From Campylobacterota bacterium (lineage in GTDB: Bacteria > Campylobacterota > Campylobacteria > Campylobacterales > Sulfurovaceae): DNA of 19,104 nucleotides. Location: the NCBI GenBank assembly GCA_034722955.1, contig JAYEOM010000036.1, positions 1 through 19,104 on the forward strand. The letters run 5' to 3'. Under the pieces are notes generated by a model. It did no database searches. It saw only the letters and a program-made list of their open reading frames with translations, and had not been told where the DNA came from. Numbering within the stretch: the first letter of the stretch is position 1; every line of letters starts with the position of its first letter. This document shows, in pieces, positions 837-19,104 of this stretch. The position numbers and the translations under genes were made by a program.

Positions 837-852
837 TCAGAACCCTTTTTTA

Positions 853-900: not shown

Positions 901-930
901 TTCACCCTCTCCTAATTCCCAAAACAAGAG

Positions 931-1602: not shown

Positions 1603-1828
1603 CTTGATCTCCCCTCATCAAACTCTCAATAAAACCTGCCTTATAAAACATCCGCAGAGGTTTTTTCTATTTTTCTAAAATGATAGACACTCAGAACGCA
1701 AGGTAAACTTTGGGGTCAGCCGCTACATATCAAGCATTTCTCTTATAATCAAAATATTATAGCTAACATTCAAAACCTCCAAATATTATCCTTTTCATAT
1801 ATGTATTATTTGTTATATGAAAACAAAC

Positions 1829-2491
1829 TTAAACCAGCAACCCCTCATCCGAAAAAGAGTAAAACCCATTTTTAGATAAAATGACATGATCGAGTAGCTC
1901 TATGCCTACTAGCTTGGATACCTCTTTGAGTCTCTGAGTTATCTGTATGTCTGCTCTACTTGCTGCGAGTGTTCCACTAGGATGGTTATGGGCGATGATG
2001 ATACCTGCTGCTCTGTCTGCTATGGCATCGGCAAATACCTCTCTAGGGTGTACTAAGCTCTGGTTTAGAGTGCCTATAAAAACTGTACGAGTATTGATGA
2101 TGTGTGAAGCACCATCGAGAGTAATAGTCAGAAAATACTCTTGTGTTTTTGCAGTAAAAGATTTGAGCTCCTCAAATACATCTTCTGCAGAGGTGATGCG
2201 TCTGTTATTTTGAATAAGGTAGCGTTTGCTGAGCTCTATAGATGCTAATATCTGAGACGCTTTAGCTAAACCCAAACCATGAATATCACAAAGTTTATCT
2301 AGGTTGACAGCATCAAAATCACTATCGAGTAGTGTTATTATCTCTTTAGAGAGTTTACGCACATCATTGCCCCGTACACCAGAGCCAAGAAGCACGCTCA
2401 TAAGCTCCTCATTTTTAAGAGCTTCCGCACCTTTTTTGGCTAATTTTTCTCTAGGTTTATCATGACTATGCAACGCTTTAATACTTTTCAT
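1829..2491 (-). CDS. radC: RadC/UPF0758 family JAB-domain protein
   Basis: KPREKL...GAEAL..EEL N-terminus, HhH motif (IHGLGLAKA), VHPREVF and AHNHPSG...S.AD...T...ELLDHVI JAB motifs. Confidence 0.95.
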   Translation of the reverse strand: MKSIKALHSHDKPREKLAKKGAEALKNEELMSVLLGSGVRGNDVRKLSKEIITLLDSDFDAVNLDKLCDIHGLGLAKASQILASIELSKRYLIQNNRRITSAEDVFEELKSFTAKTQEYFLTITLDGASHIINTRTVFIGTLNQSLVHPREVFADAIADRAAGIIIAHNHPSGTLAASRADIQITQRLKEVSKLVGIELLDHVILSKNGFYSFSDEGLLV

Positions 2492-2671
2492 ACAGTACCT
2501 TTCTGCTCCTAGTTTTACTCTATATCTATTACTACATAAGAGTTTGGTACATCCATTAGAGTTTCAACTTTACCTATGATGGCTATGCAAGTATGCATTA
2601 TGATGTAGATCGTCGTAATGAAAAAGGATATCTCTGCACCCTGCAATTTACTCTTAGCCTAATCAAATCTC

Positions 2672-2680
2672 TGCTACAAT
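2672..2680 (+). promoter_or_regulatory. Putative extended -10 promoter (TGcTACAAT) for the HerA-like ATPase
   Basis: TGCTACAAT about 28 nt upstream of the ATG at 2709, followed by an AAGG SD. Confidence 0.55.
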
Positions 2681-2708
2681 AATAGCATATTAATCAAAAA
2701 GGTTCTGT

Positions 2709-5060: not shown

Positions 5061-5086
5061 CTATATTTCGGGCTTAAGGTTACCCC

Positions 5087-5199
5087 CAATGCCAATGAAT
5101 TAAGCAAATCATAGAGTCCGATAGGAGCTGAGGCTTTAGCCTCAGACATTAGGTGGAGTCAAAGCAGCACTTCAAAAAATCCTTATTTCATTGGCATTA
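5087..5199. mobile_element. 113-bp MITE-like element with IS4-type terminal inverted repeats
   Basis: Left end CAATGCCAATGAATTAAG (5087-5104) vs reverse complement of right end TAATGCCAATGAAATAAG (5182-5199), 16/18 identical. Imperfect 10-bp flanking direct repeats AGGTTACCCC (5077-5086) and AGGCTACCCT (5200-5209). No transposase. Confidence 0.6.
5128..5145. repeat. REP-like palindrome CTGAGGC-TTTA-GCCTCAG
   Basis: Perfect 7-bp stem with 4-nt loop inside the MITE, between the convergent ATPase and pyrE genes. Confidence 0.7.
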
Positions 5200-5214
5200 A
5201 GGCTACCCTAATGA

Positions 5215-5820
5215 CTAGTCTCTGCTTCCTGGCTTGATCGCTTGGCTACCCTCTGCACAGAGTGGGCAGCTCTCAGGGGAGTACATAGCAAACTCGAAAT
5301 CTTCCAATGCAAAAAAAGCTGCATCTTTAGGCAGTTTGCACTCTGCTTTTGCCTCTATATCACTCCCCTCTCTCTGGCAAAAACCGCGATTTGCCAGTGC
5401 TGCGAAAGCGACAACTTCAGCACCAAGCTCTTCGATGACCGATGCAGCTTCCATAGCAGAGCCTCCAGTAGTGATGATATCTTCACAGATGATAATCTTT
5501 TCACCTCTGCTAACTTCAAAACCGCGACGAAGCTCCATACTACCCTCTTTGCGTTCGACAAAGATACTTCTAGTACCTAGAGATCTCGCTAGCTCATACC
5601 CAGCCAACAGACCACCCATAGCAGGAGCACAGACCGTATCTATCTCTATGCCGCTCTCTTGGATCATCTTAGCTAGTTCATTTGACAAAAGCTCTGCTCT
5701 TTTAGGATCCTCTAGTACCTTCGCACTCTGTAGATATCTGTTTGAGTGATTGCCGCTACTGAGTATGAAGTGACCCTCGAGCAGTGCACCGGACTCTCTG
5801 TATTTCTCTTCTACATTCAT
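5215..5820 (-). CDS. pyrE: Orotate phosphoribosyltransferase
   Basis: [24 protein letters not shown]-binding [15 protein letters not shown]-terminal CPLC...KPGSR; directly downstream of frr. Confidence 0.97.
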
Positions 5821-5823
5821 AAC

Positions 5824-6381
5824 TTATACTTTCAGTATATCTGCTTCTTTTGTTTTGAGCGTATCATCTATCTTTGCGATATACTCATCTGTTATCTTCT
5901 GTACCCTATCAAGACCTTTTTTCATCTCATCTTCACTGATCTCTTTATCTTTCTCTAGCTTCTTGACATGATCGTTGCCATCTTTGCGGATATTGCGAAC
6001 GGCTACCTTGCTCTTTTCGCTCATTACTTTGGCCTGCTTGACGATCTCGTGTCTCTGATCTACCGTCATAGGAGGGAAAAATAGCTTGATAAAGTCACCG
6101 TCATTGTTGGGGTTTACACCTATGTTGGCCTCTTGGATCGCTTTTTCTATAGTAGAAAGCAGTGATTTTTCCCAAGGAGTGATAGAGATAGTCGTAGCAT
6201 CCATAGCGATGACATTTCCTACTTGATTGAGTGCTGTAGGTGTACCGTAGTAGTCAACTTTGATATTATCGACGATTGTAGTGGTCACTTTACCGGTTCT
6301 TAGCGTAGAAAAATCACGCTTCATCGCATCAACACTCTTCTCCATATGCTCTTGGGTATTATCATAAATTTCATTTAACAT
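5824..6381 (-). CDS. frr: Ribosome recycling factor
   Basis: [45 protein letters not shown] motifs; 185 aa. Confidence 0.98.
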
Positions 6382-6412
6382 GCTCTTTCTCCTTGGGGTT
6401 ATGATTTTGGTT

Positions 6413-6429
6413 TGCCCCGATAGGGGGCA
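6413..6429. other. GC-rich hairpin between secG and frr (TGCCCC-GATAG-GGGGCA)
   Basis: 6-bp stem; no U-tract follows on the minus (coding) strand, so more likely an mRNA stability or processing element than a terminator. Confidence 0.45.
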
Positions 6430-6436
6430 TTCTGCT

Positions 6437-6904
6437 TTAGTGGGTTGCCGGCTTAGGAGCTTCTGTGCTCTCTGTTTTGGTATCTACTGCCGGGGCTTGG
6501 GGGACTGCCGATGTTGTTTCTGGGACTGCCGATGTTGTTTCTGGGACTGACGATGTTGTTTCTGGAACTGTCGGGGTTGTCACAGCTGGTGCCGAAGGTG
6601 CTATCGGTGCTACAGCTGTCGGTGTCTCTGCCGAAACAGGCACGGCTGACTTAACTGTATCGACAACTGATTTGTTATTCTCTTTGGTATATAGATAACC
6701 CAATGCCAGTGTATTGAGTACAAATAGAAGGGCAAGTATAAAGGTTGCTTTTGCCAGAATACCCATCGGTCCTTTGGCTCCAAACATAGATTCGTTACTC
6801 CCACTATAGGCACCTAGACCAATACTGGAACTTTTCTGCAGTAGTACGGCGACTGTGATAGCAAGTGCTAGAACAATCTGCACGATTAGTAGTGTTGATG
6901 TCAT
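6437..6904 (-). CDS. secG: Preprotein translocase subunit SecG with extended Pro/Thr/Ala-rich tail (155 aa)
   Basis: Start reassigned to ATG at 6904 (GAGGAA SD). [27 protein letters not shown]...LAKATF is the Campylobacterota SecG signature; two TM helices; upstream of frr. Confidence 0.93.
6501..6570. repeat. 21-bp tandem repeat, about 3.3 copies, encoding VPETTS(A/S) in the SecG tail
   Basis: GGGACTGCCGATGTTGTTTCT at 6501-6521 and 6522-6542, GGGACTGACGATGTTGTTTCT at 6543-6563, partial GGAACTG at 6564-6570. Confidence 0.95.
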
Positions 6905-6951
6905 TGATTCCTCTTTAAAATTAGGTCTATAGAGAGTTACTCCTAACCTAA

Positions 6952-6982
6952 TTTGGGTATAATTTTGTGGATTATACCCAAA
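6952..6982. promoter_or_regulatory. Perfect 12-bp inverted repeat with TATAAT in each arm; putative bidirectional secG/bioC promoter
   Basis: TTTGGGTATAAT (6952-6963), 7-nt spacer, ATTATACCCAAA (6971-6982), between the divergent starts at 6904 and 7007. Confidence 0.65.
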
Positions 6983-7006
6983 AAAATATGAAAATGAGTT
7001 AAATGA

Positions 7007-7723
7007 ATGACGAGGGTTTCCCAAGAATTTTCCAGATTTGCCAGTAGCTATAACCAAAACAACACTGTTCAAGCAGAGGTAGCCAAGAAGCTTGTATCTA
7101 TGCTGCCTAAAAAAGCCTACCCTAGTATACTTGATTTAGGGTGTGGCAGAGGAGAGATATACCAAAATCTCATCGATCAAAAGATAGACTATGCCCACTT
7201 GACAGCAGTAGATATCTCCAAGGAGATGCTTTGGCTACACCCTAAAGAGGATAGAGTTACACTGCTAAATGAGGACTTCAATAGCCAACAGATGGCAGAT
7301 AAACTTTCACGCAAGAGCTATGACCTTCTCCTCTCCTCATCTGCACTACAGTGGAGCCAAGATTTGGATACTACACTATCTATGTTTGCACCCATCTCAT
7401 CAAACTTCTATAGTGCTATTTTTACTGCTGGGACATTTCGGTCGCTGCATAAGTGTGCAGGTATCACCTCTCCCATATATAATGAAACCGTACTCAAAGA
7501 GAAAATAGACAAATATTATGATGTCGAATATGAAACTGTTCGATACACTCTTCACTTTGAAAACATCTATGATATGTTGCGTTACATCAAAGAGAGTGGT
7601 ACTAGTGGTGGTGAACGAAGATTGAGTTATAGAGAGACAAAACATCTGATTAGGAGTTACCCTTATGACTATTTGGAGTTCGAAGTCCTCTTTGTGCATC
7701 CAAAAAGTGAAAATATCTTATAA
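7007..7723 (+). CDS. bioC: SAM-dependent methyltransferase, BioC-like (malonyl-ACP O-methyltransferase)
   Basis: FSRFASSY....VQ.EVA..L N-terminus, ILDLGCGRG motif I, VDISKEML, DLLLSSSALQW; neighbour of secG as in other Campylobacterota. Confidence 0.75.
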   Translation: MTRVSQEFSRFASSYNQNNTVQAEVAKKLVSMLPKKAYPSILDLGCGRGEIYQNLIDQKIDYAHLTAVDISKEMLWLHPKEDRVTLLNEDFNSQQMADKLSRKSYDLLLSSSALQWSQDLDTTLSMFAPISSNFYSAIFTAGTFRSLHKCAGITSPIYNETVLKEKIDKYYDVEYETVRYTLHFENIYDMLRYIKESGTSGGERRLSYRETKHLIRSYPYDYLEFEVLFVHPKSENIL

Positions 7724-7726
7724 GTA

Positions 7727-7735
7727 TGCTATACT
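7727..7735 (+). promoter_or_regulatory. Putative extended -10 promoter (TGcTATACT)
   Basis: TGCTATACT about 31 nt upstream of the ATG at 7767. Confidence 0.5.
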
Positions 7736-7766
7736 ATTTAAAATAATACAAAATAAGGTTTATGTT

Positions 7767-8567
7767 ATGAATTGGTATCAAAAATTACTAATCACTCTCT
7801 CTGTTATGTTACTCTTGACTCCTGCAAGTTATGCAGAGCATATATGGGTAGGACTCTACGCCAAAGGCACAGATATGGCAGCACAGTCGATCGTAAGCAG
7901 AGAGTATCTGCCCGATATGGGTGATGCTATAGAGACAGAATGGAAGAAAGGTTTTTATCTTGTTGACTTGGAGCAGGGTGGTCGCACTTGGATGGGTATC
8001 TTTGCCAAGGGTACAGGATATACCGCCCAATCTTATCTGCATAGTAGCAATTGGAACAAATTTGCCGAAAGCATCGACAAGAAGAAGAGCGAGGGCTATG
8101 ACCTCATAGATGTCGAGTATGGCGATGCAGAGTGGGTTGGTGTATTTGCCAAAGGGACAGGGTATAAAGATCAAGTCTATACTGCCGATCGAGAGTGGAA
8201 AGATTTCCAAAAAACACTAAAAGAGTATTGGGGCAAGGGATATGCTCTGACTGAAGTTGAAGCAGGCGGTGGCAAATGGGTAGGTGTTTTTGCTAAAAAT
8301 ACAAAACTTAAAGATCAGAGCTACATCAGCTTGGATGAGTGGAGTGCTGTTCGTCAAGTGATCCGTGAACAGTGGGACAATGGTCATCAAATCACCAAAC
8401 TTGAGTATGGAGAGGGGCGTTGGTTTGTACTCTTTACCAAAGATGTTTTATGGCAAGAGCAGGCTTATAGCAGCAACTACGGATGGGAACGGTTTAGAGC
8501 CAAACTCAAAAGCTACTGGAGAGAGAACTATGATATCATCTCTATATCTAGCGGATGGAACGACTAA
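7767..8567 (+). CDS. Secreted protein with five ~48-aa tandem repeats (DUF7477/BTRD1-like)
   Basis: Start reassigned to ATG at 7767 (AAGG SD). Signal peptide ending ASYA, then five repeats of W-x-G-V-F-A-K-G-T-G-Y-x-x-Q-S-Y...W...W-x-x-G-Y-x-L-x-x-V-E-x-G. Confidence 0.8.
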   Translation: MNWYQKLLITLSVMLLLTPASYAEHIWVGLYAKGTDMAAQSIVSREYLPDMGDAIETEWKKGFYLVDLEQGGRTWMGIFAKGTGYTAQSYLHSSNWNKFAESIDKKKSEGYDLIDVEYGDAEWVGVFAKGTGYKDQVYTADREWKDFQKTLKEYWGKGYALTEVEAGGGKWVGVFAKNTKLKDQSYISLDEWSAVRQVIREQWDNGHQITKLEYGEGRWFVLFTKDVLWQEQAYSSNYGWERFRAKLKSYWRENYDIISISSGWND

Positions 8568-8579
8568 AGCAGGCTTAAG

Positions 8580-8966
8580 ATGGATTCTCAAAGTATAGGC
8601 AAATTGATCTTACGGATTGCGATTGGCGGTCTGTTGCTCTTTCATGGTGTAGATAAGATTTTGCATGGTATTGGATATATAGAGAGTCTGCTCAAGATAG
8701 AAGGGCTGCCTCCATATTTGGCATTTGGTGTCTATGTTGGAGAGATTTTGGCTCCTCTGATGTTGTTGGTCGGATGGAGAAGCAGATGGTGGGCATCCAT
8801 TATTGCTTTCAACATGGCTGTAGCGATCTATCTAGTACATAGCAAATCCCTCCTCACCCTAGGCTCTCATGGCTCTTGGTCACTAGAGACACCGGTACTC
8901 TTTTTGATGGGTGCCTTGGCGATTATCTTTTTAGGGTCTGGTAAGTATGCTATCTCCAAGGATTAG
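8580..8966 (+). CDS. DoxX family membrane protein
   Basis: LILRIAIGGLLLFHG..K, GE....L..L.G..SR, NMAVAIYLVH, C-terminal G.GKYAI; four TM helices, 128 aa. Confidence 0.9.
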   Translation: MDSQSIGKLILRIAIGGLLLFHGVDKILHGIGYIESLLKIEGLPPYLAFGVYVGEILAPLMLLVGWRSRWWASIIAFNMAVAIYLVHSKSLLTLGSHGSWSLETPVLFLMGALAIIFLGSGKYAISKD

Positions 8967-8973
8967 GAGTGTT

Positions 8974-9909
8974 GTGAAACTAAGTTATCTCATACCTCTT
9001 GTTGTATTGTCGATATCGGTAAATGCCGAGACTACAGAGCCTTGGGCGAAAGCACTGAAGGGGTTGACTCCTCAAGAGAGACATGTCATAGTAGACAAAG
9101 GAACAGAGCGACCTTTCTCAGGTCAATATCTCCATACCGACAGTAGTGGTATCTATCGTTGCAAAGTTTGCAATACAGCTCTCTATAGATCTGATGATAA
9201 GTTTATATCCCATTGCGGCTGGCCTAGTTTTGATGATGCGATACCCGGTGCCATAAAGAAGCAGAGAGATAGTGATGGAAGACGCACTGAGATTCTATGT
9301 GCCAAGTGTGATGCTCACTTGGGGCATCTGTTTGAAGGAGAGGGGCTAACAGCCAAAAATAGACGATACTGCGTAAACTCTATCTCATTGAACTTTGAAG
9401 ATAATAGATCAACTCTACCCTCTCAATATCGGCATGCCTATTTTGCAGGTGGATGTTTCTGGGGAGTTGAGTACTATCTCGAAAAGCTAGATGGAGTTAA
9501 AGAGGTCATATCCGGTTTTATGGGTGGCAGTGTTAAAAACCCCAGCTACTCTCAGGTCATGAGTGGCGATACAGGACATATTGAGACAGTTGATGTACTC
9601 TATGATCCCAAGACAATATCTTACGAAAAATTGGCAAAAACTTTCTTTGAGATTCATGACCCCACACAAAAGAGTAGACAAGGTCCCGATATTGGCGAGC
9701 AGTACCAATCGGCTATTTTTGTAACAGATCTAAAAGAGAGGGAGACTGTAGATAGTCTCATTAAGGTTTTGATAGAGAGGGGCTATAGAGTAGAGACCAA
9801 AGTTTTGAGTGTAGAGTCGTTCTATAGTGCAGAGGCATATCATCAGGACTACTATAGACGCAAAGATAGAGAGCCATATTGCCACAGCTATATCAAACGC
9901 TTTGAGTAG
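8974..9909 (+). CDS. msrAB: Bifunctional peptide methionine sulfoxide reductase MsrB-MsrA with signal peptide
   Basis: Probable GTG start at 8974 after AGGAG; signal peptide ending SVNA. MsrB motifs GTERPF, CxxC twice, CGWPSF, HLGHLF, RYCVNS; MsrA motifs FAGGCFWG, GHIE, HDPTQ, QGPDIG.QY.S, AE.YHQDY. Confidence 0.93.
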   Translation: MKLSYLIPLVVLSISVNAETTEPWAKALKGLTPQERHVIVDKGTERPFSGQYLHTDSSGIYRCKVCNTALYRSDDKFISHCGWPSFDDAIPGAIKKQRDSDGRRTEILCAKCDAHLGHLFEGEGLTAKNRRYCVNSISLNFEDNRSTLPSQYRHAYFAGGCFWGVEYYLEKLDGVKEVISGFMGGSVKNPSYSQVMSGDTGHIETVDVLYDPKTISYEKLAKTFFEIHDPTQKSRQGPDIGEQYQSAIFVTDLKERETVDSLIKVLIERGYRVETKVLSVESFYSAEAYHQDYYRRKDREPYCHSYIKRFE

Positions 9910-10014
9910 TATCTGATATATAGAGTTAGGAAGTTATCAAAACAGATCTACCCATCTGACTAGCTCTTTTTAAAAGCTATTTGAGTGTATCATGTAAAAA
10001 ATAGGAGGCTACAA

Positions 10015-11202
10015 ATGGGCATAGAGAGTATTGAAAAACAAAAAACTTCTGCATTGGCGTTATCAGGTGGTGGATATAGAGCTGCACTGTTTGCACTTGG
10101 CAGTCTATGGCGCCTTAATGAATTTGGCATATTAAGAAAACTAGATCGTATCACCGCAGTCTCTGGCGGATCGATCACATTGGGGCATCTGGCACTCCAC
10201 TGGAGTGATCTTGAGTTTGATGATCATGATGTCGCTAAAAATTTTGAAGAAGTTGTCGTAAAGCCTTTACAGAAGTTTTGCGGTGAACCTTTAGATGTCA
10301 AAGCAGGCATTATAGGCTTGTTGACTCCTTGGAAAACTATAGGCGATAAGATCACTGAAGCTTATGATGATAAACTGTTTGACAGGGCTCTACTCAAAGA
10401 GCTGCCTCATGGCAAAGGTATTCCGGAATTTATATTTTACGCTACAAATTACGGAACAGGTTCAAGCGTCCGTATGACACAAGATCATATTTATGACTAC
10501 AAATTAGGAGAAGCACCCTCCGGAGACCTCTCTCTCGCACGGGCAGTCGCAGCTTCCAGTTCCTTTCCCCCCATATTTTCTCCTGTGATACTTGACTCAA
10601 GTAAGTGGAACTGGAAGCGAACAGATCACTCTGATCTACACGATAATAGAGCTTTGCGTGATCGACTTGTACTTGCAGATGGCGGACTCTATGACAATCT
10701 TGGAGTGGAGGCTATCTGGAAGGATGAAGAGGAGAGTAGTGACCATTTTGATCAAGTGTTTGTCTGCAATGCCGGTGCACCTTTCAAAGTAGGTTTTGAT
10801 ATGAAGGGTGGGCCACTCTCTACTCTCATACAAAAGATCGGACTCAAAAGAAATTGGATCACACAATTTTCTCGCATGACAACTATCATGATCAACCAGC
10901 AGCGTGCCGTTAGAAAGCGTTATTTGATGACCAATACAAAGTATGGAGCATACAGAGTAGCTTACTGGGCTATACCAACAAATATATCCAAGTATGATGT
11001 AGAGAACAGACTCGCTTCTGATACTCCAACGACCAAATGTATAGCAGAGATACCTACGCGGCTGAAGGCATTTTCCCATGAAGAGCAGGGGCATCTGATC
11101 AATTGGGGATATGCACTTACAGATGCTGCTGTTAGGTGCTATATAGACTCAGACCTTAAGAGGGCAGAGAGAGTTCCTCTGCCGGATCATCCTCTAGGTT
11201 GA
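10015..11202 (+). CDS. Patatin-like phospholipase
   Basis: Start at ATG 10015 after AGGAGG. Oxyanion loop LSGGGYRA, nucleophile AVSGG (Ser codon 10162), AASSSFP, catalytic DGGLYDNLG (Asp codon 10678). Confidence 0.92.
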   Translation: MGIESIEKQKTSALALSGGGYRAALFALGSLWRLNEFGILRKLDRITAVSGGSITLGHLALHWSDLEFDDHDVAKNFEEVVVKPLQKFCGEPLDVKAGIIGLLTPWKTIGDKITEAYDDKLFDRALLKELPHGKGIPEFIFYATNYGTGSSVRMTQDHIYDYKLGEAPSGDLSLARAVAASSSFPPIFSPVILDSSKWNWKRTDHSDLHDNRALRDRLVLADGGLYDNLGVEAIWKDEEESSDHFDQVFVCNAGAPFKVGFDMKGGPLSTLIQKIGLKRNWITQFSRMTTIMINQQRAVRKRYLMTNTKYGAYRVAYWAIPTNISKYDVENRLASDTPTTKCIAEIPTRLKAFSHEEQGHLINWGYALTDAAVRCYIDSDLKRAERVPLPDHPLG

Positions 11203-11228
11203 TATGATAATTTATAATGGAGTAAAAG

Positions 11229-12386
11229 ATGAGCATATGGCATAAAACATCATATTATGATGAGGTCTGCACACATGTTTTGGTCATAGGAACAAGCAAG
11301 TATACTTATCTTCCTGATGATATAACAAGCGATGATGAGAAGCTTCTGGGTCTGACCTCTGTTTCGACACCCGCCACTTCTGCTTACCGTTTTGCTTGTT
11401 GGATCAAAGAGAGCTACAATAACTCCAAAGCACCGCTAGGAAGCATACGCCTCCTTCTAGCACCATCCCAAAAAGAGATCGACAATGAACCTCAACTAGG
11501 CCAGCTCAACCAGCCTCTCCCCGATAGTTCAAATGTTGAGGATGCACTCTATGCTTGGCAGAACGACTGTTTGAAGTTTCGAGAAGGTCACTGCATTGTC
11601 TATATTGCCGGACATGGTATTCGGCTTTCCGGTGATTTGGGTATTGTGCTGTTGGAGGATTTTGGAAAGCCAAATAGATCTATTTTGGAGGGAGCTCTTG
11701 ATATCGGCAATATTCATCAGGCTATGGCTCAGGATAGTGCGGCTAAAAACCAATTTTACTTTGTGGATGCCTGTGCGATCGAACCAAAACTCTTTGCTCA
11801 GTATATATCAGCAAAGACAGGGATCAATCTGGATATAAAACGGGGGGAATCTGTTGAATCATCACCTATATTTTTTGGAGCTGCCCCTGAAACATTGGCT
11901 TTAGGAAAACCGGGAGAGGGTACCCTTTTCATACAGGTACTTTTACAATGCCTGCGATCTGATGCAGCCAAAGCAGATGATCAAAACAACCCTAAAAATT
12001 GGCTGGTTTCTACGCTTGAACTTTTCAAACAGTTACAAAAAGGTGTGAAAGAACTTGCTATGAGTTACAACGAAACACAATCTGTTGTACTTGGCGGAAT
12101 CTCTTCAAATACTGTTTTTCATGAATCAGAAGATCCTCCTGTTATCACTTTGACAGTCTCCCTCTCTCCCCAATCAGCAGTGCAGTATGCAAAATATACA
12201 CTGATCAATCTTACAACAAATGAAAAGTTTGAGCTTTTTCCTTTTGAGTCTCCTTATATCGATGTGGTAAATCCGGGGGTATACCGTATCGAATTTGATA
12301 TGACTGAAGATTCACATCACTCTGGTAAAATAGTTCCAGCGATCATTATCTCCCCTCCGAGACATGATGAGGAGATTGTATTATGA
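11229..12386 (+). CDS. Caspase-like (peptidase C14) cysteine protease with C-terminal PEGA-like beta domain
   Basis: N-terminal strand HVLVIG...Y, catalytic His in YIAGHG (H129), catalytic Cys in YFVDAC (C182), G.GTLF...LL.CL helix; C-terminal ~80 aa beta-rich with VNPGVYRIE. Confidence 0.88.
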   Translation: MSIWHKTSYYDEVCTHVLVIGTSKYTYLPDDITSDDEKLLGLTSVSTPATSAYRFACWIKESYNNSKAPLGSIRLLLAPSQKEIDNEPQLGQLNQPLPDSSNVEDALYAWQNDCLKFREGHCIVYIAGHGIRLSGDLGIVLLEDFGKPNRSILEGALDIGNIHQAMAQDSAAKNQFYFVDACAIEPKLFAQYISAKTGINLDIKRGESVESSPIFFGAAPETLALGKPGEGTLFIQVLLQCLRSDAAKADDQNNPKNWLVSTLELFKQLQKGVKELAMSYNETQSVVLGGISSNTVFHESEDPPVITLTVSLSPQSAVQYAKYTLINLTTNEKFELFPFESPYIDVVNPGVYRIEFDMTEDSHHSGKIVPAIIISPPRHDEEIVL

Positions 12387-13699
12387 AAAAGATATTTTTA
12401 TATGATTTTTCTGATGATCACTCTACACTCTCTCCGGCAACACTCAATGTGAAAATATCAGAGTATTATGATTTTCCTTTGGTGATACGAAAAAGTAATT
12501 TTCAGCTTCAAGGTTACAGCAGGACAGATGGAACCATCGTATTGGATCCGGGATTATATATTATTGAAGCTGTGAAACCTGATGGTGAGATAGAGAGTGA
12601 AATAGTAGATCTCAAAACTGGTGATGCCAAAGAGTTGAAACTCACTTTCACTCCAGAAAAAAATATTGAAAACAAAAAAGAGCTCTTAGAGGAGGAGTCC
12701 GAAGAGAGATTTGAAGATCTATTGATGATGACTGCCCCAAAAAACAGATCATCTGATGTGGATACCAAGGCATCTGCTACATTTAGACCTTTCCCGGGTG
12801 ATGCTTATGGATCTTTGAGAAATACCAAGGCATCTACTACATTTAGACCTCGCCAGATCAATAAAAAGTTTATCCCTAAAAAAGAGGCTATAACAGTAAA
12901 AATACTCTCTTTTAACGAGAAAGGTTGGCAAGAGGAGAGAGAGTTGTCGGGAGCAGAAAACTTTAATAGAGAGACCACAGATAGCAGTGATCATATCAGG
13001 ATAGATATTGATGCTCTAGAGTATCTGCAGATCTTGGAGGTCAGCAGAAACAGAGATAAACCGACTAATTTACTACTACCCATCCAAAAAAACTCAATGA
13101 TCGAGAGATGTACCGTAGAGATAGTGGACAATGGGGTGGATCTTAAGCTCTCCTGCTCTTTTGAGGATAGCAAGCGTACTACACTCATGTTTGATTACCT
13201 TTCGAGCAACTCTCTTGAAGAGGCAGCAGGTCTTGCCGAAGAAGCTGAAGGCATGCTATATAGTAAAATGAGCAATCCTATAGGAGCAGTGATAGGGGGT
13301 TATATTCTGTTGCGTATCGGTGCTGTCGAGCAGATGCACGATTGGCCGAAAAATTTATATGAGTGGTTTCCAAGGTTATCTGATGGTGCTATTATTGCAG
13401 GAGAATTTGAAGCTAGAAGAGGTAATGATAGAGAAGCTATAGATCTATTCTTGGGTGCATATAAACGAGGACTGCCTATCTTTCGTGAGGGGCTCTCTCT
13501 TTTGGTTGCAAGATTGCGTCTGTATATGCTTTATGAGAAAGAGTTATTGATCAATGAAACAAAACAAAAAGAGATAGAGTTAGCCTATTCATATCTGGCT
13601 AAACTAGCGATGTTTACAGATGATGCATATGGACTGCTAGTTATTGATAATATCTCATTGATCGAGGATGAATATTTTAAAAGGAGTGCAAATGTTTAA
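12383..13699 (+). CDS. Uncharacterised caspase-associated multidomain protein (PEGA-like N-terminus, repeat-containing linker, beta domain, helical C-terminal domain)
   Basis: ATGA overlap with the caspase stop and a GAGGAG SD. LDPGLYIIE beta domain; C-terminal NPIGAVIGGYILLR...HDW..NL..WFP.LSDGAII...RGLPIF.EGL helical region. Confidence 0.8.
   Translation: MKKIFLYDFSDDHSTLSPATLNVKISEYYDFPLVIRKSNFQLQGYSRTDGTIVLDPGLYIIEAVKPDGEIESEIVDLKTGDAKELKLTFTPEKNIENKKELLEEESEERFEDLLMMTAPKNRSSDVDTKASATFRPFPGDAYGSLRNTKASTTFRPRQINKKFIPKKEAITVKILSFNEKGWQEERELSGAENFNRETTDSSDHIRIDIDALEYLQILEVSRNRDKPTNLLLPIQKNSMIERCTVEIVDNGVDLKLSCSFEDSKRTTLMFDYLSSNSLEEAAGLAEEAEGMLYSKMSNPIGAVIGGYILLRIGAVEQMHDWPKNLYEWFPRLSDGAIIAGEFEARRGNDREAIDLFLGAYKRGLPIFREGLSLLVARLRLYMLYEKELLINETKQKEIELAYSYLAKLAMFTDDAYGLLVIDNISLIEDEYFKRSANV
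12762..12850 (+). repeat. In-frame 29-bp direct repeat, two copies, 60-bp period (TKAS[A/T]TFRP twice)
   Basis: ATACCAAGGCATCTGCTACATTTAGACCT (12762-12790) and ATACCAAGGCATCTACTACATTTAGACCT (12822-12850), one mismatch. Confidence 0.92.
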
Positions 13700-14771
13700 A
13701 GTCGAACTGATACAGGCTGGACATGGTGACTCTATATGGATCGAGTATGGCAGGGATCCGGACTCTCTCCATCGTATCCTGATCGATGGAGGTACGGCCG
13801 GCACTTTCAAGCGTCTCAAAAAGCGTATTGAGCAGTTACCTTCCGATAAACGGCATTTTGATCTTCTTGTCATTACCCATATTGATGCAGATCATATCGC
13901 AGGAGTGCTGAAACTGCTCGAAGAGGATAGTCTGGGTGTGACATTCGGTGATATATGGTATAACGGGTATCAACATTTGAGCAGCCTGGAGTCTCTAGGG
14001 GTTAAGCAGGCAGAGATCCTTTCAGACTATTTGGACAAACTTGATATCCACTGGAATCAAGCTTTTGGCGGCAAATCAGCCTGCATAGATAGAGAGAAAG
14101 AGTTTTTACCTATCGTTCTGCCCGGAGGTATGAAGCTTACACTCCTCTCTCCTTCTCTAAAAGAGTTGGCAAAGCTGAAACCAAAGTGGGAGAGGGAAGC
14201 AGAAAAAGCTGGACTTTTTCTAAATAAGAAGCCTGAAGAGAGAGAAGAGCTAGATACGAGTCCCTCCGGACTTGAATCACTAGGGGGAGCTAAATTGCCC
14301 GATATTGAGAGTCTGGCAAAAAGTATTTTTGAACCAGATGATTCACTGCCAAACGGCAGCAGTATCGCACTTATCACCGAGTATGATGATAAAAAAATGC
14401 TTTTTGCCGGAGATGCCCATGCTGCTGTACTTCTTGACTCTATCAAAGCGTATCTTCCTGGGTGTCAACCTCTCTATCTCGATCTCTTCAAAGTACCCCA
14501 TCATGGAAGCGAAGCCAATATCTCCAAAGCGTTACTAGAACGGATACGATGCAACTCCTACCTGATCTCATCCAATGGTGCCTATTTTAAACATCCTGAT
14601 GAAATTGCCATAGCCAGGATCATCAAATACGGCGGAAATAAACCGGATATCTACTTTAACTACTTGTCAAAACACAATGATATATGGAACAATCCAATTT
14701 TGCAAAAGAGGTATCAATATCAAGCACACTACCCATCAAGCGAAGAGACGAGTATTGTTGTGTCGGTTTAG
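13692..14771 (+). CDS. Metallo-beta-lactamase-fold hydrolase/nuclease (ComEC/Avs1a-like)
   Basis: Start reassigned to ATG at 13692 (AAGGAG SD, 8-nt overlap with the upstream gene). Motifs GHGDS, ILIDGG, THIDADH (HxDxDH), NGSSIA, LFAGDA, KVPHHGS, HP. Confidence 0.9.
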   Translation: MFKVELIQAGHGDSIWIEYGRDPDSLHRILIDGGTAGTFKRLKKRIEQLPSDKRHFDLLVITHIDADHIAGVLKLLEEDSLGVTFGDIWYNGYQHLSSLESLGVKQAEILSDYLDKLDIHWNQAFGGKSACIDREKEFLPIVLPGGMKLTLLSPSLKELAKLKPKWEREAEKAGLFLNKKPEEREELDTSPSGLESLGGAKLPDIESLAKSIFEPDDSLPNGSSIALITEYDDKKMLFAGDAHAAVLLDSIKAYLPGCQPLYLDLFKVPHHGSEANISKALLERIRCNSYLISSNGAYFKHPDEIAIARIIKYGGNKPDIYFNYLSKHNDIWNNPILQKRYQYQAHYPSSEETSIVVSV

Positions 14772-14823
14772 GTGCAGCACTCTTTTTTTGGCTCTTTGGT
14801 TTATTATTTTAGCGTAATGTTTG

Positions 14824-14982
14824 TTACTTTTTTGTGAATTTTATAGAGTCTATATTCAGCTTATTAAACTCATCAATAGCCACAATAGCACCATCAAATC
14901 GCTCTTGCAATAGAAGATCTCCTATGTTCCCTGCATCAAAAATTTGGGTATTTAGTTGGTAGGGTAATATATATGTAACCAC
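14824..14982 (-). pseudogene. 52-codon open frame, possible C-terminal gene remnant or small protein
   Basis: GTG at 14982 to TAA at 14824: VVTYILPYQLNTQIFDAGNIGDLLLQERFDGAIVAIDEFNKLNIDSIKFTKK; protein-like composition, no clear SD. Confidence 0.3.
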
Positions 14983-14989
14983 TTTTTTC

Positions 14990-14995
14990 TATAAT
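14990..14995 (+). promoter_or_regulatory. Putative -10 box (TATAAT) for the sensor operon
   Basis: Consensus TATAAT about 26 nt upstream of ATG 15022, followed by a GAGGGAG SD. Confidence 0.45.
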
Positions 14996-15021
14996 CCAAA
15001 TATATTATAGAGGGAGTTATT

Positions 15022-15783
15022 ATGTATCGTTATCTTTTGTATCCGTTGATAGTAATGGTTTTGAGTTCGACACTCCAAGCTGCATCTATCAGAAGTCAAG
15101 TCTCACTGCTAGAGGCTTCAGAGAATATTCGTTTGGGTAGTCAACAGATAGTTGTAACCTACCTCTCCTACTACCTCAATCCCAAAAAAAGATATAGAAG
15201 AGATCTCGCTCTCAAAAAACTCAAAGAGCTAGAGAAACAATTTGAGCTAATAGATAGATCAATGAAAGATGAAGAGTCTAGAGATGTACTCAATTTTTTG
15301 TACTATAGTAGAGAGAAGATGCTTAAGCTCATACAAGAGCCAATAGAGGGGGGAAATCCCCATAAAATCTTGGAGTATAGTGAGATACTGCTAAAAGCAG
15401 CAGACTCTATCACGCGGGAGCTTGGCTATACACTGAGCGAAGATGAGAAGATGCTCATCAAAATGAAAGATATATCTTTTTTGATGGAAAAAATGACAAA
15501 AAGTTATCTACTTTTACAAACAGATAAAAATAGTGCATCTTATATGAGTATGGTCAAGAGTACTATAGCAGAGATGGACAAGGCACTGATTCTTTTGGAT
15601 GACTACAACTACTCAGCTAAGAGCTTATTGATTCTCTCAAAACTACATAAAAACTGGAAAGGGATCAAACCCTACTATCTCAAAGAGAGTGATATAGAGA
15701 TAGAAAATATACTACTACTCGCATCCAAACAGATAGAGAAAAACTCTCTACTTTTAGAAAAATATCATAGTAAAAATCAATAG
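15022..15783 (+). CDS. Exported all-helical protein with tandem PilJ/NarX-like four-helix sensor domains
   Basis: Signal peptide ending LQA. IRLGSQQIVVTYL resembles the RMLSQRI.K.Y P-box-like motif; a second degenerate copy ISFLMEKMTKSYL; W..IK..Y helix. Confidence 0.6.
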   Translation: MYRYLLYPLIVMVLSSTLQAASIRSQVSLLEASENIRLGSQQIVVTYLSYYLNPKKRYRRDLALKKLKELEKQFELIDRSMKDEESRDVLNFLYYSREKMLKLIQEPIEGGNPHKILEYSEILLKAADSITRELGYTLSEDEKMLIKMKDISFLMEKMTKSYLLLQTDKNSASYMSMVKSTIAEMDKALILLDDYNYSAKSLLILSKLHKNWKGIKPYYLKESDIEIENILLLASKQIEKNSLLLEKYHSKNQ

Positions 15784-15794
15784 GAGATAATAAA

Positions 15795-18700
15795 GTGAAA
15801 ACACTACACAAGAAGCGTATTGATATTGGTATCCTTGCGATACTTCTGTTTTTGTCATTGGCGATTTTCTACTATGCGACGATGCAATATAGTAGATACC
15901 TTGATCTCTCCAAGAGTAGAGCAGATTTGAGCGTGCTGGAGGATTTAAATGGTTTTTTAGAGCATATAGATGAGGAGCGAAGGCTCTCATCGCTATTTAT
16001 TCTTAAAAGCAGTGATGATACAGTAGCTAGCAACCTCAACAGTATACGACAACTTGTTGACAAAGATTTGGATAAGTTACAAAAAAATGATGGAGGAGCA
16101 TTATCAAAAGGGTTTTTTGATAAATTTTCTACATTAAATGCAGTAAGAAACAAAATCAGCAAAAGAGAGATATCTTTTGATGAGTTATTTGCCCAGAGAT
16201 ATACAAAAGATTTTAGTTTTACTGTCATTAATGAGATCAATACAATCATCAAGAGTTTGGAGATCCAGCATAACAATGGGGGCTTCTATAATTCCATGAA
16301 AGCATTTAATTTAGATAAATATATTGCACTCAAAGATATTCAGTCAAACAGAGAGATACTAGATCTCTATTTAGAATTGATATTGATAGAAGAGAATATA
16401 GAGATGGAACGAGGATTTATATCTTTTCTACTCTATAAAGACACTCCATTTAGTGATAAAAATCTAGTGACTTGGAATAGTCAAATAAACAAAGATTATA
16501 TACCTAAGATTGGAAAATTAACTGACAATAATATAGTGGCTAAACTGGATATTCTCCTAGACCAAGACCTCTACTTTGCATCTATTGATGAGCAGAGATC
16601 TGATATTGTACTCTCCTCTATCAACGATAGATTATCAACCATCAACAAAGATAAATGGAACAACACAGCCAAGCAGAGAGTCGAAAAAATAACAAAAAGC
16701 ATCAATATACTCTCATTGAATATCAAAAATACAGTTTTAGAAAATATCTCTCAGATAAAAAAAGAGCTCTATATACTTGGTACTATTCTTATCCTTTTGC
16801 TTCTCATAATATTGGCACTCTACTTTAGATTTAGATCATCTACCAAAGATGAACATGGATTCAAAGAGGCAATAGAAGACATTAGATTAAATCTCAACCC
16901 ATCGCAACAAAATGAACTTAACGATATTATAAAAAAACAAAATAAGGTCAAAATATATAATTTTATGGCTGACACCATAGCCGAATCTAACCGATCAAAA
17001 GATCTATTTTTGGCTAACATGTCTCATGAAATCAGAACACCTCTCAATGGTATTTTGGGCTTTACGCAACTTCTTAAAAGTACTAAACTTACAGGGGAGC
17101 AGTTGGAATTTATAAAAATTATTGATAATAGCTCTAGCAACCTACTAGTTATAGTCAACGATATTTTGGACTTGGCAAAAATACAAGAGCAAAAAGTAGA
17201 GCTCGAATCTATAGAGTTTAACCCTTTTGATATATTTGAGTCCGCCATAGAGTCCTATGGTGCAAAAGCAGATGAAAAAAATATAAACCTGCAACTCTTT
17301 GTAGATCCACATATCAATACAACACTCAAAGGAGACCCGACAAAACTCACCCAAGTAGTTGTCAATCTCATCAGTAATGCTATCAAATTTACCCCTGAGG
17401 AGGGAGTAATAGATGTGAGAGTAGAGAAGATAAGCTCACAGGATGGATACTCCAATATCAGATTTGCAGTCAAAGATACAGGTATAGGTGTGAGCGAAGA
17501 GCAAAAAAAGAGCATATTCAAAGCATTCTCACAAGAGGATATATCTACAAGCCGTCAATATGGTGGCACAGGATTAGGCTTGACCATCTCCAAGAAGTTT
17601 ATTGATGCAATGGGTGGAGAGCTTGATATAGATAGTATCAAGGGTGAGGGATCGACCTTCTTTTTCGAGCTTCACCTGCCCGAAGTCTCCCCTATAGATG
17701 TGAATCAAAATAACCACCACATAGGGTTTTGTATGCCACACAATCAAAAGCAGATAAATGAGAGAGAAAATATCAAAAAATATATAGAGTATACAGGTGC
17801 AAAATACTCAGAGTATCTATCTATCGATAGCTTGTTGGAGTCTAATCATATGGAGCATCTTACACTCCTTTTTGTCCATAGTATTGATATGGAGGAGCTT
17901 GGTAAGATACCACAATCTGATATGAAGATCATACATATCTCCAAACTAGACAACTTTCGTGATAACAATCATCAATTCCCTCGTATTGATTCAGTCATAT
18001 ACAAGCCGATTAACTTTTCCAAAATTAAAAGAGGTATAGACATAAGTAAGAATTCAAACAATTTACTTATATCATCAAAAGATAGTTCACAATCCCTAGC
18101 CTTCGATAATCTCTCTATCCTCATAGCAGAAGACAATAAAATCAATCAAAAACTCATGGAGCATACACTCTCCAATCTCAAGATACAACTCACTATTGTA
18201 GAGAATGGTAAGGAGGCACTAGAGCAGAGAAAGAGCAACCACTATGACCTCATACTCATGGATATTCAAATGCCTGTGATGGATGGAGTAGAGGCTACAC
18301 ATAAAATACTAGAGTATGAAGAGCAAAATAACTTGCCACATACTCCTATAGTCGCACTCACTGCCAATAATATCAAAGGGGATAGAGAGAGACTGATGAG
18401 TGAAGGGATGGATGAGTTTTTACCAAAACCAATAGAGTTGAAGAAGATAGAGAGTATGCTCAAAGAGTATTTCCCCCAAAAGGTCTCAGCTTCAGAGTCT
18501 CGTATAGATATCATTCTTTGCAAAAATCAAAAAACTGATAATAAAATCTTTAAAGCACTCTTTGAGAGTATGGGGTATAGTGTCCATACAGCCGATGATT
18601 TCAATGACTATAGAGAGAAGATAGAGAGTACAAATTACAACTACTCCTTTGCTGACACATTTTTGTTTAATGAAGAGCCAATGCTCAAAAATATTTTGCA

Positions 18701-18839
18701 GACAAAAAATATCAAAAATGTTATCTTCGTCAATAAGTTTGAAGACTCAAAAACAATGAAATCACTACATGATTATGACAATATTATACCAGGCATTGCA
18801 GAAAAATCACTGATAGAGTACTACATGCAGAAGATATAA
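15795..18839 (+). CDS. Hybrid sensor histidine kinase (TM-NIT-like periplasmic domain-TM, HisKA, HATPase, receiver domains)
   Basis: GTG start after AGGAG. NIT-like DEERRLS and EMERGFI motifs; H-box FLANMSHEIRTPLNGI; N-box NLISNAIKFT; DTGIG and GGTGLGL; canonical receiver (AEDN, LMDIQMP, KP) flanked by two degenerate receiver-like regions. Confidence 0.93.
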   Translation: MKTLHKKRIDIGILAILLFLSLAIFYYATMQYSRYLDLSKSRADLSVLEDLNGFLEHIDEERRLSSLFILKSSDDTVASNLNSIRQLVDKDLDKLQKNDGGALSKGFFDKFSTLNAVRNKISKREISFDELFAQRYTKDFSFTVINEINTIIKSLEIQHNNGGFYNSMKAFNLDKYIALKDIQSNREILDLYLELILIEENIEMERGFISFLLYKDTPFSDKNLVTWNSQINKDYIPKIGKLTDNNIVAKLDILLDQDLYFASIDEQRSDIVLSSINDRLSTINKDKWNNTAKQRVEKITKSINILSLNIKNTVLENISQIKKELYILGTILILLLLIILALYFRFRSSTKDEHGFKEAIEDIRLNLNPSQQNELNDIIKKQNKVKIYNFMADTIAESNRSKDLFLANMSHEIRTPLNGILGFTQLLKSTKLTGEQLEFIKIIDNSSSNLLVIVNDILDLAKIQEQKVELESIEFNPFDIFESAIESYGAKADEKNINLQLFVDPHINTTLKGDPTKLTQVVVNLISNAIKFTPEEGVIDVRVEKISSQDGYSNIRFAVKDTGIGVSEEQKKSIFKAFSQEDISTSRQYGGTGLGLTISKKFIDAMGGELDIDSIKGEGSTFFFELHLPEVSPIDVNQNNHHIGFCMPHNQKQINERENIKKYIEYTGAKYSEYLSIDSLLESNHMEHLTLLFVHSIDMEELGKIPQSDMKIIHISKLDNFRDNNHQFPRIDSVIYKPINFSKIKRGIDISKNSNNLLISSKDSSQSLAFDNLSILIAEDNKINQKLMEHTLSNLKIQLTIVENGKEALEQRKSNHYDLILMDIQMPVMDGVEATHKILEYEEQNNLPHTPIVALTANNIKGDRERLMSEGMDEFLPKPIELKKIESMLKEYFPQKVSASESRIDIILCKNQKTDNKIFKALFESMGYSVHTADDFNDYREKIESTNYNYSFADTFLFNEEPMLKNILQTKNIKNVIFVNKFEDSKTMKSLHDYDNIIPGIAEKSLIEYYMQKI

Positions 18840-18864
18840 CTGTTACTGAATTGTTTCCAAAGAT

Positions 18865-18873
18865 TGCTACTAT
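18865..18873 (+). promoter_or_regulatory. Putative extended -10 promoter (TGcTACTAT)
   Basis: TGCTACTAT about 44 nt upstream of the ATG at 18918. Confidence 0.35.
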
Positions 18874-18917
18874 TTCATAGTTTAAAATCAAGTTCATTCG
18901 GACAAACAGGAGATTGC

Positions 18918-19104
18918 ATGAAGTTACTAAAACATACACTTAGAATATTTTTATTAATCGCTCTATCAATACATTTCGGATACAGCGAATCTATTCATCT
19001 CAAAGATGGCACATTTTTTGAGGCAAAGATAGACGCAGTCAAGAGTGGATACCATATTTTTGAGATACCAAAATCGCAAATTATCCAGATAAAATATAAA
19101 AGCA
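18918..19104 (+). CDS. Exported hypothetical protein, 5' part; runs off the window edge
   Basis: AGGAG SD then MKLLKHTLRIFLLIALSIHFGYSESIHLKDGTFFEAKIDAVKSGYHIFEIPKSQIIQIKYKS; signal peptide followed by an I.LKDG beta-hairpin; open to the end of the window. Confidence 0.75.
   Translation, partial: MKLLKHTLRIFLLIALSIHFGYSESIHLKDGTFFEAKIDAVKSGYHIFEIPKSQIIQIKYKS

Follow-up and report, generated by a model that had tools for sequence, protein, structure and literature searches.

Why should a nuclease carry the same five residues twice, once in each of two loops? The question is raised by a 359-residue protein of the metallo-beta-lactamase (MBL) fold, encoded at positions 13692..14771 on the forward strand of a 19,104-nucleotide stretch of DNA (hereafter the window) from a Campylobacterota bacterium of the family Sulfurovaceae (GenBank assembly GCA_034722955.1, contig JAYEOM010000036.1, positions 1 to 19,104). 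An earlier note on this DNA had proposed that the pentapeptide LESLG, found twice in this protein, is a recognition sequence for the co-encoded caspase, and that double cleavage activates the nuclease. Our answer runs along the same lines. Window positions 9985-14771 most probably hold a four-gene antiphage operon of the Canu type, whose DNase would be a proenzyme activated by the caspase at both LESLG sites, a reading to which we assign a probability of roughly 0.8. The model of the earlier note is the one published by Tuck et al. (Science 2025, PMC12799240), and the LESLG motifs fall on the two positions of CanC described there. The pro-nuclease model is supported, but it was published in November 2025, and the locus is a further example of it.

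In the mechanism that we envisage, a patatin-like phospholipase, a CanA-like caspase of the MALT1 type, a CanB-like partner and a CanC-like inactive DNase proenzyme would be encoded together. Two loop insertions of the DNase, without counterpart in ComEC-type domains, would each present the recognition sequence L-E-S-L↓G (the arrow marks the predicted cut). Infection would activate the CanA/CanB complex, which would then cut after Leu102 and Leu197, with Leu at P4, Glu at P3, a free P2, Leu at P1 and Gly at P1'. The resulting fragments of about 11.6, 10.7 and 18.1 kDa would remain together as an active enzyme that degrades DNA, leaving the infected cell killed or arrested. For the trigger, the role of the 438-residue CanB-like protein and the requirement for both cuts, we rely on analogy with KaeCanABC, the Canu system of Klebsiella aerogenes; from the combined evidence we infer that the MBL protein of the window is cleaved, at which bonds, and that both cuts are needed.

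The repeated motif and the loops that carry it

The first LESLG occupies residues 99-103 of the MBL protein (13986..14000, + strand, CTG GAG TCT CTA GGG) and the second residues 194-198 (14271..14285, + strand, CTT GAA TCA CTA GGG), in agreement with the positions, residues and codons given in the earlier note. That note had also pointed out that three of the five codons differ synonymously and that the flanks are unrelated (YQHLSS-LESLG-VKQAE and TSPSG-LESLG-GAKLP); both observations hold, and on that basis a recent DNA duplication is ruled out as the origin of the repeat. It had placed the two copies correctly as well: site 1 comes after W89-Y90-N91, and site 2 lies in an acidic, Pro/Ser-rich stretch about 22 residues ahead of N221-G-S-S-I-A. 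LESLG is the sole repeated 5-mer of the protein, there is no repeated 6-mer, and two of the eight other window proteins checked also contain a repeated 5-mer. When the MBL protein was shuffled, a repeated 5-mer was present in 1393 of 20000 shuffles (7.0%).

The gene starts at an ATG at 13692 (MFKV...), with GGAG 5 nt upstream, and the N-terminal consensus of the homologues begins at the same point. The PADLOC models matched by the protein (LmuA-associated MBL, E 9e-80; RTasMBL, 2.9e-51; Avs1a, 1.5e-44) are those of accessory MBLs of Lamassu, DRT and AVAST. Its metal-binding residues, H63-x-D65-x-D67-H68 (13878-13895), D241 and H270-H271 (14499-14504), are invariant in homologues. NCBIfam matches of the locus proteins were all under their cutoffs, including those of the MBL protein to the Avs1a model (231.5 bits, cutoff 420) and to TIGR00361 (ComEC/Rec2; 30.5 bits, cutoff 190). 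Two other identities were ruled out. A ComEC/Rec2 competence nuclease does not fit a stand-alone protein of 359 residues that scores below the TIGR00361 cutoff and has some 76 extra residues. A trypsin-MBL module (HamM, Avs1a, or a Lamassu or DRT accessory) does not fit a locus in which a Pfam scan found no trypsin-like domain and whose MBL protein has Leu, not Ile, before the Gly and an Avs1a score below the cutoff.

The AlphaFold2 model of the MBL protein (150 sequences) reached a mean predicted local distance difference test (pLDDT) of 93.0 and a predicted template modelling score of 0.93, with pLDDT below 50 only at residues 102-104. Gating loop 1 (approximately residues 91-110, 13962..14021, + strand) contains site 1 and is coil according to DSSP, with low block-mean pLDDT values of 79 (residues 91-100) and 60 (101-110). 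Gating loop 2 (approximately residues 171-204, 14202..14303, + strand) contains site 2, is mostly coil and varies in length and sequence among homologues; its block means are 80, 84 and 71 across residues 171-200. Both LESLG sites are coil, bar a three-residue turn at 195-197, and the confidence of the model is lowest there. The best fold match in the PDB is the MBL domain of ComEC (9ic4, 266 residues, E 5.1e-13). In the sequence alignment residues 2-75 of the MBL protein pair with ComEC 4-79 and residues 218-292 with ComEC 146-216; between these blocks lie about 76 residues in excess of the ComEC domain, with both LESLG motifs inside. The earlier note had assigned the motifs to probable loop insertions, to be verified by structure prediction, and the model agrees: it puts both in coil loops of low confidence, within the segment that ComEC lacks.

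The evidence that carries our reading comes from the family. With a threshold of E <= 1e-10, one search returned 2608 proteins, the best 120 being used, and a second search of another library returned 9276 at E <= 0.001, of which the best 150 were used. A Gly three residues ahead of the conserved Gln106, which is the position of site 1, is present in 254 of 269 homologues, and G103 itself is conserved in at least 90%. In representative homologues the residues before this Gly are unlike between proteins, yet they recur in loop 2 of the same protein, as in the pairs DDILGP/DDILGP, DDFDDLLG/DDFDDWLG, EELTLG/EELTLG and WEKFG/WERFG, or in PPDLMG and GLEPMG, each present twice. Across 342 unique sequences, the 6-mer of site 1, compared with the best-matching 6-mer of loop 2 in the same protein, gave a mean BLOSUM score of 13.32. 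Permuted pairing gave a mean of 8.91 (standard deviation 0.20, maximum 9.80), and the observed value was reached in 0 of 10000 permutations. As a control for relatedness, the own loop 2 was compared with that of the nearest relative: it was the better match in 174 cases and the worse in 106, with 62 ties (binomial p 2.9e-5), and where the nearest relative was less than 60% identical it was better in 114 and worse in 45. The co-variation of the two sites within each protein, which the earlier note had suggested looking for in homologues, is thus apparent at the sequence level. Since both positions are conserved and co-vary in homologues, the LESLG repeat stands above chance.

Identity between site 1 and loop 2 from P5 to P1' was.30,.43,.62,.26,.61 and.70, so that P3, P1 and P1' are the most shared positions and P2 the least. 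Judged from these alignments, P2 is free. Because the middle residue is unequal between site 1 and site 2 in the four closest relatives (LEH/LES, LES/LEA, LES/LET and LES/LEA), the full 5/5 identity of the two LESLG copies owes something, on the sequence evidence, to luck at P2, which is unconstrained.

In some homologues the motif of the protein is present two or three times within a single loop (P0217 and P0238 in loop 1; L048, L051, L081 and L086 in loop 2), for example DLLG...DDLLG or DVLG...D[DT]LGG. These sequences suggest that extra or spare cut sites may exist.

Canu, the caspase and the predicted scissile bonds

What is known of such systems comes mainly from two recent studies, here taken from the available parts of their texts. 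According to Tuck et al. (PMC12799240), an MBL nuclease that is paired with a protease is a gated proenzyme; HamM, for instance, is cut after Ile118 and Ile218, once in each of the insertions that cover its active site. In the same work Canu (CanABC) from Klebsiella aerogenes, KaeCanABC, defends against T4. CanA combines a MALT1-like caspase and an Ig-like domain, CanB co-purifies with CanA, and CanC is an MBL pro-nuclease with two insertions and a conserved glycine in each. CanAB converts CanC into a potent nuclease, and mutating either predicted site of CanC ablates defence against T4. The supplementary table gives the sites of KaeCanC as SSSLEGLG(104)AVQ and VPNLESMG(189)ASLP, along with the mutants G104K, G189K and H271A. 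The proposal that double cleavage activates the nuclease therefore draws support, by analogy, from KaeCanABC, in which CanAB activates CanC and either G104K or G189K abolishes defence. Our search of later literature on Canu turned up nothing beyond Tuck et al.

The window locus resembles Canu in gene order (caspase, presumed partner, MBL nuclease), with the genes on the same strand and overlapping or nearly abutting, and in a caspase of MALT1-like fold, which like KaeCanA has a His/Cys dyad and ends in a beta domain. LESLG103 and LESLG198 stand at the positions of LEGLG104 and LESMG189 in the printed KaeCanC, the catalytic His (H271 in KaeCanC) corresponds to H270/H271 of the window protein, and lengths are similar (390/347/356 residues in K. 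aerogenes, 385/438/359 in the window). The differences are a patatin-like gene packed ahead of the caspase gene, a middle protein about 90 residues longer, and a host of another phylum.

Evans et al. (bioRxiv 10.1101/2025.11.14.688446) reported that VcMBL is cut after Ile133 and Ile232, with unequal efficiency at the two sites, and divided the MBLs into three clades, whose linked proteases are trypsin-like, caspase-like and subtilisin-like. The trypsin-MBL modules (HamM/HamMAB, Avs1a/Avs1b; VcMBL-Avs2, AtMBL-Avs4), as described in the same two papers, share with the window a homologous MBL pro-nuclease with two gating insertions at equivalent places; there, the protein is cut twice into three fragments, and in its active form it is a Zn-dependent nuclease of double-stranded DNA. 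Their protease is a sensor-fused, trypsin-like serine protease encoded downstream, whereas that of the window is a stand-alone cysteine caspase encoded upstream, and their mapped cuts follow Ile (I118/I218; I133/I232), whereas the window has Leu before a conserved Gly. A closer parallel in specificity is the gasdermin of Runella, in which a CHAT protease cuts after Leu247 at P1 and Gly at P1' is essential (Johnson et al., 10.1101/2021.06.07.447441, from its available text). The non-polar P1 is common to both systems and unlike that of animal caspases. The gasdermin is, however, a pore-former freed by a single C-terminal cut, and its CHAT protease is fused to Roc-COR rather than being of the C14 plus Ig-like type. 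Finally, the LcCaspase with its alpha-beta-hydrolase zymogen (Evans et al., as far as covered) also cuts a neighbouring effector twice at one motif, R↓G, after Arg73 and Arg117; effector fold and P1 differ from ours, and the [R/K]-G motifs at both loops of loci L001, L003, L004 and L016, discussed below, are nearer to that specificity than is the window.

The caspase gene (11229..12386, + strand) encodes 385 residues with a match to Pfam PF00656 (C14, E 4.6e-7). Catalytic His129 (11613-11615) is present in 40 of 40 homologues and Cys182 (11772-11774) in 39 of 40. The model (pLDDT 92.4) consists of a caspase domain and an all-beta C-terminal domain (approximately residues 296-384), and its best Foldseek match in the PDB is the caspase-Ig3 part of the MALT1 paracaspase (3uo8_B, E 2.8e-10), followed by caspases 9, 7, 8 and 3. 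Compared by eye, the protein is collinear with the printed KaeCanA in the Gly-His-Gly and Asp-x-Cys blocks and the C-terminal strands. The sequence LEDFG at residues 142-146 was considered as a self-processing site and set aside, given that KaeCanA has LKDFA there and that the segment is modelled as a strand region.

The 438-residue protein (12383..13699, + strand) has homologues at the same position, directly ahead of the MBL gene, in 11 metagenome loci according to a local iterated hidden Markov model (HMM), and by eye it resembles the printed KaeCanB. It had no match in Pfam, PADLOC or NCBIfam; nor does PADLOC hold a model for the caspase or the patatin. The nearest clusters in the ESM Atlas carry PF27295 Y4kD_C (0.98, 235/256 features), which serves as a lead only. 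We presume that this protein is a partner or regulator of the caspase. A short motif, noticed by eye, recurs at its N-terminus (PGLYIIE) and in the caspase's C-terminal beta domain (PGVYRIE); structural matches of the 438-residue protein in the Atlas are carboxypeptidase-regulatory-like beta-sandwiches with template modelling scores below 0.4.

A complex of caspase and MBL protein was predicted with a score of 0.62, against 0.00 for the best of three controls. This passes a mark reached by 116 of 157 solved complexes and by 2 of 215 mismatched pairs, which is only a rough guide here since our own alignments were used. The runs agreed in at least 97% of contacts, with partner pLDDT of at least 84. 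The interface comprises residues 192-202, 327 and 334-340 of the MBL protein and, on the caspase side, includes 127-131 and 180-187. In the model L197 contacts G128, H129, G130, A181, V45, T47 and P48, and G198 contacts H129 and G130; L194 is surrounded by L225, G226, K227, L233, Y280 and E282, and E195 by V45, T47, G226 and P228. L197 would thereby take the P1 position and G198 P1'. The prediction supports binding between caspase and MBL protein but is no proof of it, and it may reproduce, from solved complexes, the general pose that a strand adopts in the cleft of a caspase. That the caspase is the enzyme cutting the MBL protein is likely in light of the model. Based on the complex and on the gasdermin precedent, we infer that the scissile bonds are L102↓G103 (between 13997 and 13998) and L197↓G198 (between 14282 and 14283).

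LESLG might be recognized by the caspase and yet be cut elsewhere, either after the Gly, which would then be P1, or a few residues away, with LESLG serving for docking. Tuck et al. (PMC12799240) name the conserved glycines as the recognized residues and mutate them, and the parts of the paper covered contain no mass-spectrometric map of CanC; Gly is also the most conserved position of the site, both within proteins (0.70) and across the 269 homologues. We nonetheless consider a different bond unlikely. In the model it is L197 rather than G198 that lies beside His129 and A181, the neighbour of the catalytic Cys; G198 falls on the prime side. In addition, the sole mapped precedent with this dipeptide in the bacterial caspase clan, in the literature as covered, cuts between Leu and Gly, and the match between sites at P1 (0.61) is nearly that of the Gly.

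Alternatively, one of the two sites alone could be cut or needed, the other being redundant, a decoy, or an exosite by which a protease oligomer retains its substrate. The 1:1 model, which docks site 2 alone, would be compatible with this, as would the different efficiencies with which the sites of VcMBL are reported to be cut. We regard such an arrangement as improbable, given that in KaeCanABC mutation of either predicted site ablates defence and that HamM and VcMBL are cut at both sites, according to the published accounts available. Moreover, in our alignments both sites are conserved and co-vary, implying selection on each.

Motif class and the neighbouring protease

We collected 80 metagenome loci with genomic context, with the MBL open reading frame (ORF) and called neighbours in 79, and 15 genome loci, with both in 7. 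Pfam scans covered 18 and then 90 of 97 operon-like neighbour proteins, leaving out five ORFs of L038 (a duplicate of L034), L055:1448-3736 (which duplicates L053) and L071:39-3956; local HMMs seeded with the window proteins were run on the neighbour proteins. In 11 metagenome loci, 10 of them distinct (L038 repeats L034), the MBL gene is immediately preceded by a CanB-like gene, and five of these (L025, L031, L034, L038 and L094) have a CanA-like gene too. In the other six no ORF was called upstream of the CanB-like gene, and in most of them the contig ends there. All 11 loci have E/Q at P3, F/Y/L/M at P1 and G/S at P1' at both sites, as in GLESFG/GLESFG, GFEEFG/GFEAFG, DIQEFG/DIEAFG and, with Ser at both, DIQTYS/GIEVMS; P4 is non-hydrophobic at both sites of L094 and at site 1 of L063. 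By tblastn, no relative of the window caspase or of the 438-residue protein was detectable in the 15 genome loci; the caspase matched 16 plasmid records, all below 30% identity.

Other neighbours go with other motifs. L001, L003, L004 and L016, whose MBL proteins are 52-64% identical to that of the window, have a papain-like C1 neighbour with or without a short C14 protein; they carry [R/K]-G at site 1, and the CanB-type grammar is absent from their loop 2. In these loci (L001:3752-7096, L003:1080-5074, L004:6001-9672 and L016:2435-5735) the MBL gene with [R/K]-G-V stands upstream of a papain-like C1 protease of 580-707 residues, and in L003 and L004 a short C14 caspase of 259-271 residues is encoded between the two. 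Five fusions of CHAT and MBL have x-[L/M]-G-[A/S]-x-Q at site 1 and a Ser/Thr-rich loop 2. CHAT, in some cases with TPR-S, is fused to MBL in one polypeptide in P0123, P0125, P0131, P0135, P0150, P0159 and P0253 and in L019, L024, L027, L029 and L068, with a loop 2 (e.g. GTPSTST) that has no copy of the site 1 motif.

Among the 120 closest homologues, loop 2 contained the grammar in 58 of 71 proteins with a hydrophobic P1 at site 1, compared with 1 of 48 with R/K. In the 342 sequences a hydrophobic-Gly pair occurred in loop 2 in 232 of 257 and 10 of 65, respectively. On a tree built without the loop columns the motif class changed at least nine times. The suggestion that both sites carry the same recognition sequence for the co-encoded caspase is thus in keeping with a twin motif that, in these sequences, tracks the class of the neighbouring protease. 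The coarse co-switch of motifs is suggestive, and it is the fine-grained comparison with the own loop that carries the weight.

Several points nonetheless weigh against activation by caspase cleavage at both sites. The repeated LESLG, as a bare statistic, is weak evidence. Loop 2 would not be a fully disordered linker, considering its fair confidence in the model (71-84), and site 1 lies outside the 1:1 complex interface, where site 2 alone is docked. The exact bond (before the Gly, after it or nearby) is itself a prediction by analogy, the KaeCanC sites being, in the published account as covered, predicted and mutated but unmapped. The homology of the caspase and of the 438-residue protein to KaeCanA and KaeCanB is a by-eye reading of printed sequences. 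Of the 71 close homologues whose site 1 has a hydrophobic P1, 13 lack the strict grammar in loop 2. On the tree, only three independent supported pairs were available for the co-switch, with site 2 concordant in 2.3 on average, and a sign test was not significant.

One could argue, from the shuffles and from L, E, S and G being common residues, that the repeat arose by coincidence or serves a structural purpose (loop capping, DNA contact) unrelated to proteolysis, but we disfavour this as very improbable, and chance is ruled out on the family evidence despite the weak single-protein statistic, given that both sites change together following the neighbouring protease class, that they co-vary within proteins across the 342 sequences, that the same two positions are reported as functionally required in KaeCanC, and that the motif docks in the caspase cleft of the model.

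A few loci show different neighbours. In L062 a protein of 1200 residues (3375-6974) with an N-terminal Cpn60/TCP-1 chaperonin domain is encoded immediately upstream of an MBL protein with twin GLLG, with a patatin downstream; possibly, the 1200-residue protein is a sensor or protease fused to a chaperonin. A 796-residue protein with an HU DNA-binding domain (L048:4596-6983) is encoded immediately upstream of a gated MBL gene, and a TIR-domain protein (L092:602-1579) immediately upstream of an MBL protein carrying R-G motifs. In L106 the contig ends 214 nt past the gene and gives no informative context.

The operon, its phospholipase and a possible private code

The four genes of the operon are tightly packed head to tail on the + strand, in the order patatin, caspase, 438-residue protein and MBL protein, with a gap of 26 nt, an overlap of 4 nt (ATGA, joining the caspase stop and the start of the 438-residue protein) and an overlap of 8 nt. 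The patatin-like phospholipase gene (9985..11202, + strand; Pfam PF01734, E 1.1e-18) encodes 405 residues from a GTG at 9985, with an alternative ATG start 10 codons inside. A terminator-like hairpin with a T-run (14756..14789, + strand, a consensus match only) lies over the MBL stop codon (14769-14771) and is likely to mark the end of the operon, bearing in mind that the region has no more terminator-like sites than shuffling leads one to expect. On either side lie genes of the housekeeping kind (frr, secG, msrAB and one for a hybrid histidine kinase), and in G+C content the locus (0.418) is no different from the left flank (0.408). The MBL protein is patchy in the family, being found in 14 of the 151 genomes searched (its own counted) and in none of 13 from its genus; the closest named records are Sulfurovum metagenome-assembled genomes. 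Elsewhere in the window, a 300-residue protein (7665-8567) with a DUF7477 match repeats FAKGTGY and WVGVFAK about 48 residues apart. Furthermore, a RadC-like JAB protein (1829-2491, - strand) and a 783-residue HerA-like ATPase (2709-5060) are encoded 5-8 kb ahead of the Canu-like operon and could constitute another mobile or defence element.

Food for discussion is the phospholipase. A patatin gene is found not only in the window, but also in L025 (3289-4491, in the same order patatin-CanA-CanB-MBL), L046, L048, L062 and L083. In L034 (1274-2344) and L038 a Tle1-like (DUF2235) gene takes the position of the patatin, and Tle1-like genes also occur in L037 (2758-3999), L041 (369-1538), L066 (10036-11256) and L084 (240-1394). 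The main text and the spreadsheet of Tuck et al. (PMC12799240), as far as covered, do not mention phospholipases. We considered whether these proteins share a caspase cut motif with the nuclease and dropped the idea. The pattern phi-[E/Q]-x-phi-[G/S] was absent from the phospholipases (patatin or Tle1-like) of the window, L025 and L034 (background 0.32 per 400 residues), and across 11 loci the motif of the nuclease was hardly a closer fit to the phospholipase of its locus than were the motifs of other loci (15.2 vs 12.8 and 14.8 vs 13.8). The patatin is possibly a second effector.

We tentatively propose, at odds that we would put slightly short of even, that the twin loops hold a private, protein-specific cleavage code that co-evolves with the cognate protease and keeps the pairs orthogonal, and that a two-armed variant with a DNA and a membrane effector exists beside it. 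Twin motifs such as DDILG, EELTLG, PPDLMG, GLEPMG and the LESLG of the window would be examples of the code. Within this proposal, the Canu clade would use hydrophobic-Glu-x-(Leu/Phe/Met)↓Gly, a counterpart with hydrophobic P1 of the animal initiator-caspase motif. The two-armed variant is suggested because a phospholipase gene recurs in loci with caspase or CHAT and MBL. Neither the private code nor the recurrence of phospholipases was found in the parts covered of Tuck et al. and Evans et al.

Animal cells offer an instructive comparison for the grammar of the sites. Their initiator caspases recognize (L/I)-E-x-D↓G, and a caspase licenses the caspase-activated DNase for cell death by cutting a separate inhibitor, ICAD. 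The hydrophobic P4, Glu at P3, free P2 and small P1' of the window recall this motif. The window differs in that P1 is Leu/Phe/Met instead of Asp, that the nuclease itself would be cut, and that the nuclease folds are unrelated.

With the mechanism already known, the locus extends Canu to a Sulfurovum-like host, and its main value is confirmation. Relative to the published accounts as available, it adds predicted scissile bonds, a subsite grammar (hydrophobic P4, Glu at P3, free P2, Leu/Phe/Met at P1 and Gly/Ser at P1', as predicted), the family-wide co-variation of the two sites and a variant bearing a phospholipase. The recurring phospholipase raises the question whether some Canu systems fire two effectors. 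If the private code holds true, the motif of a nuclease would predict the protease that controls it, and matched pairs of protease and cut site could serve as orthogonal switches.

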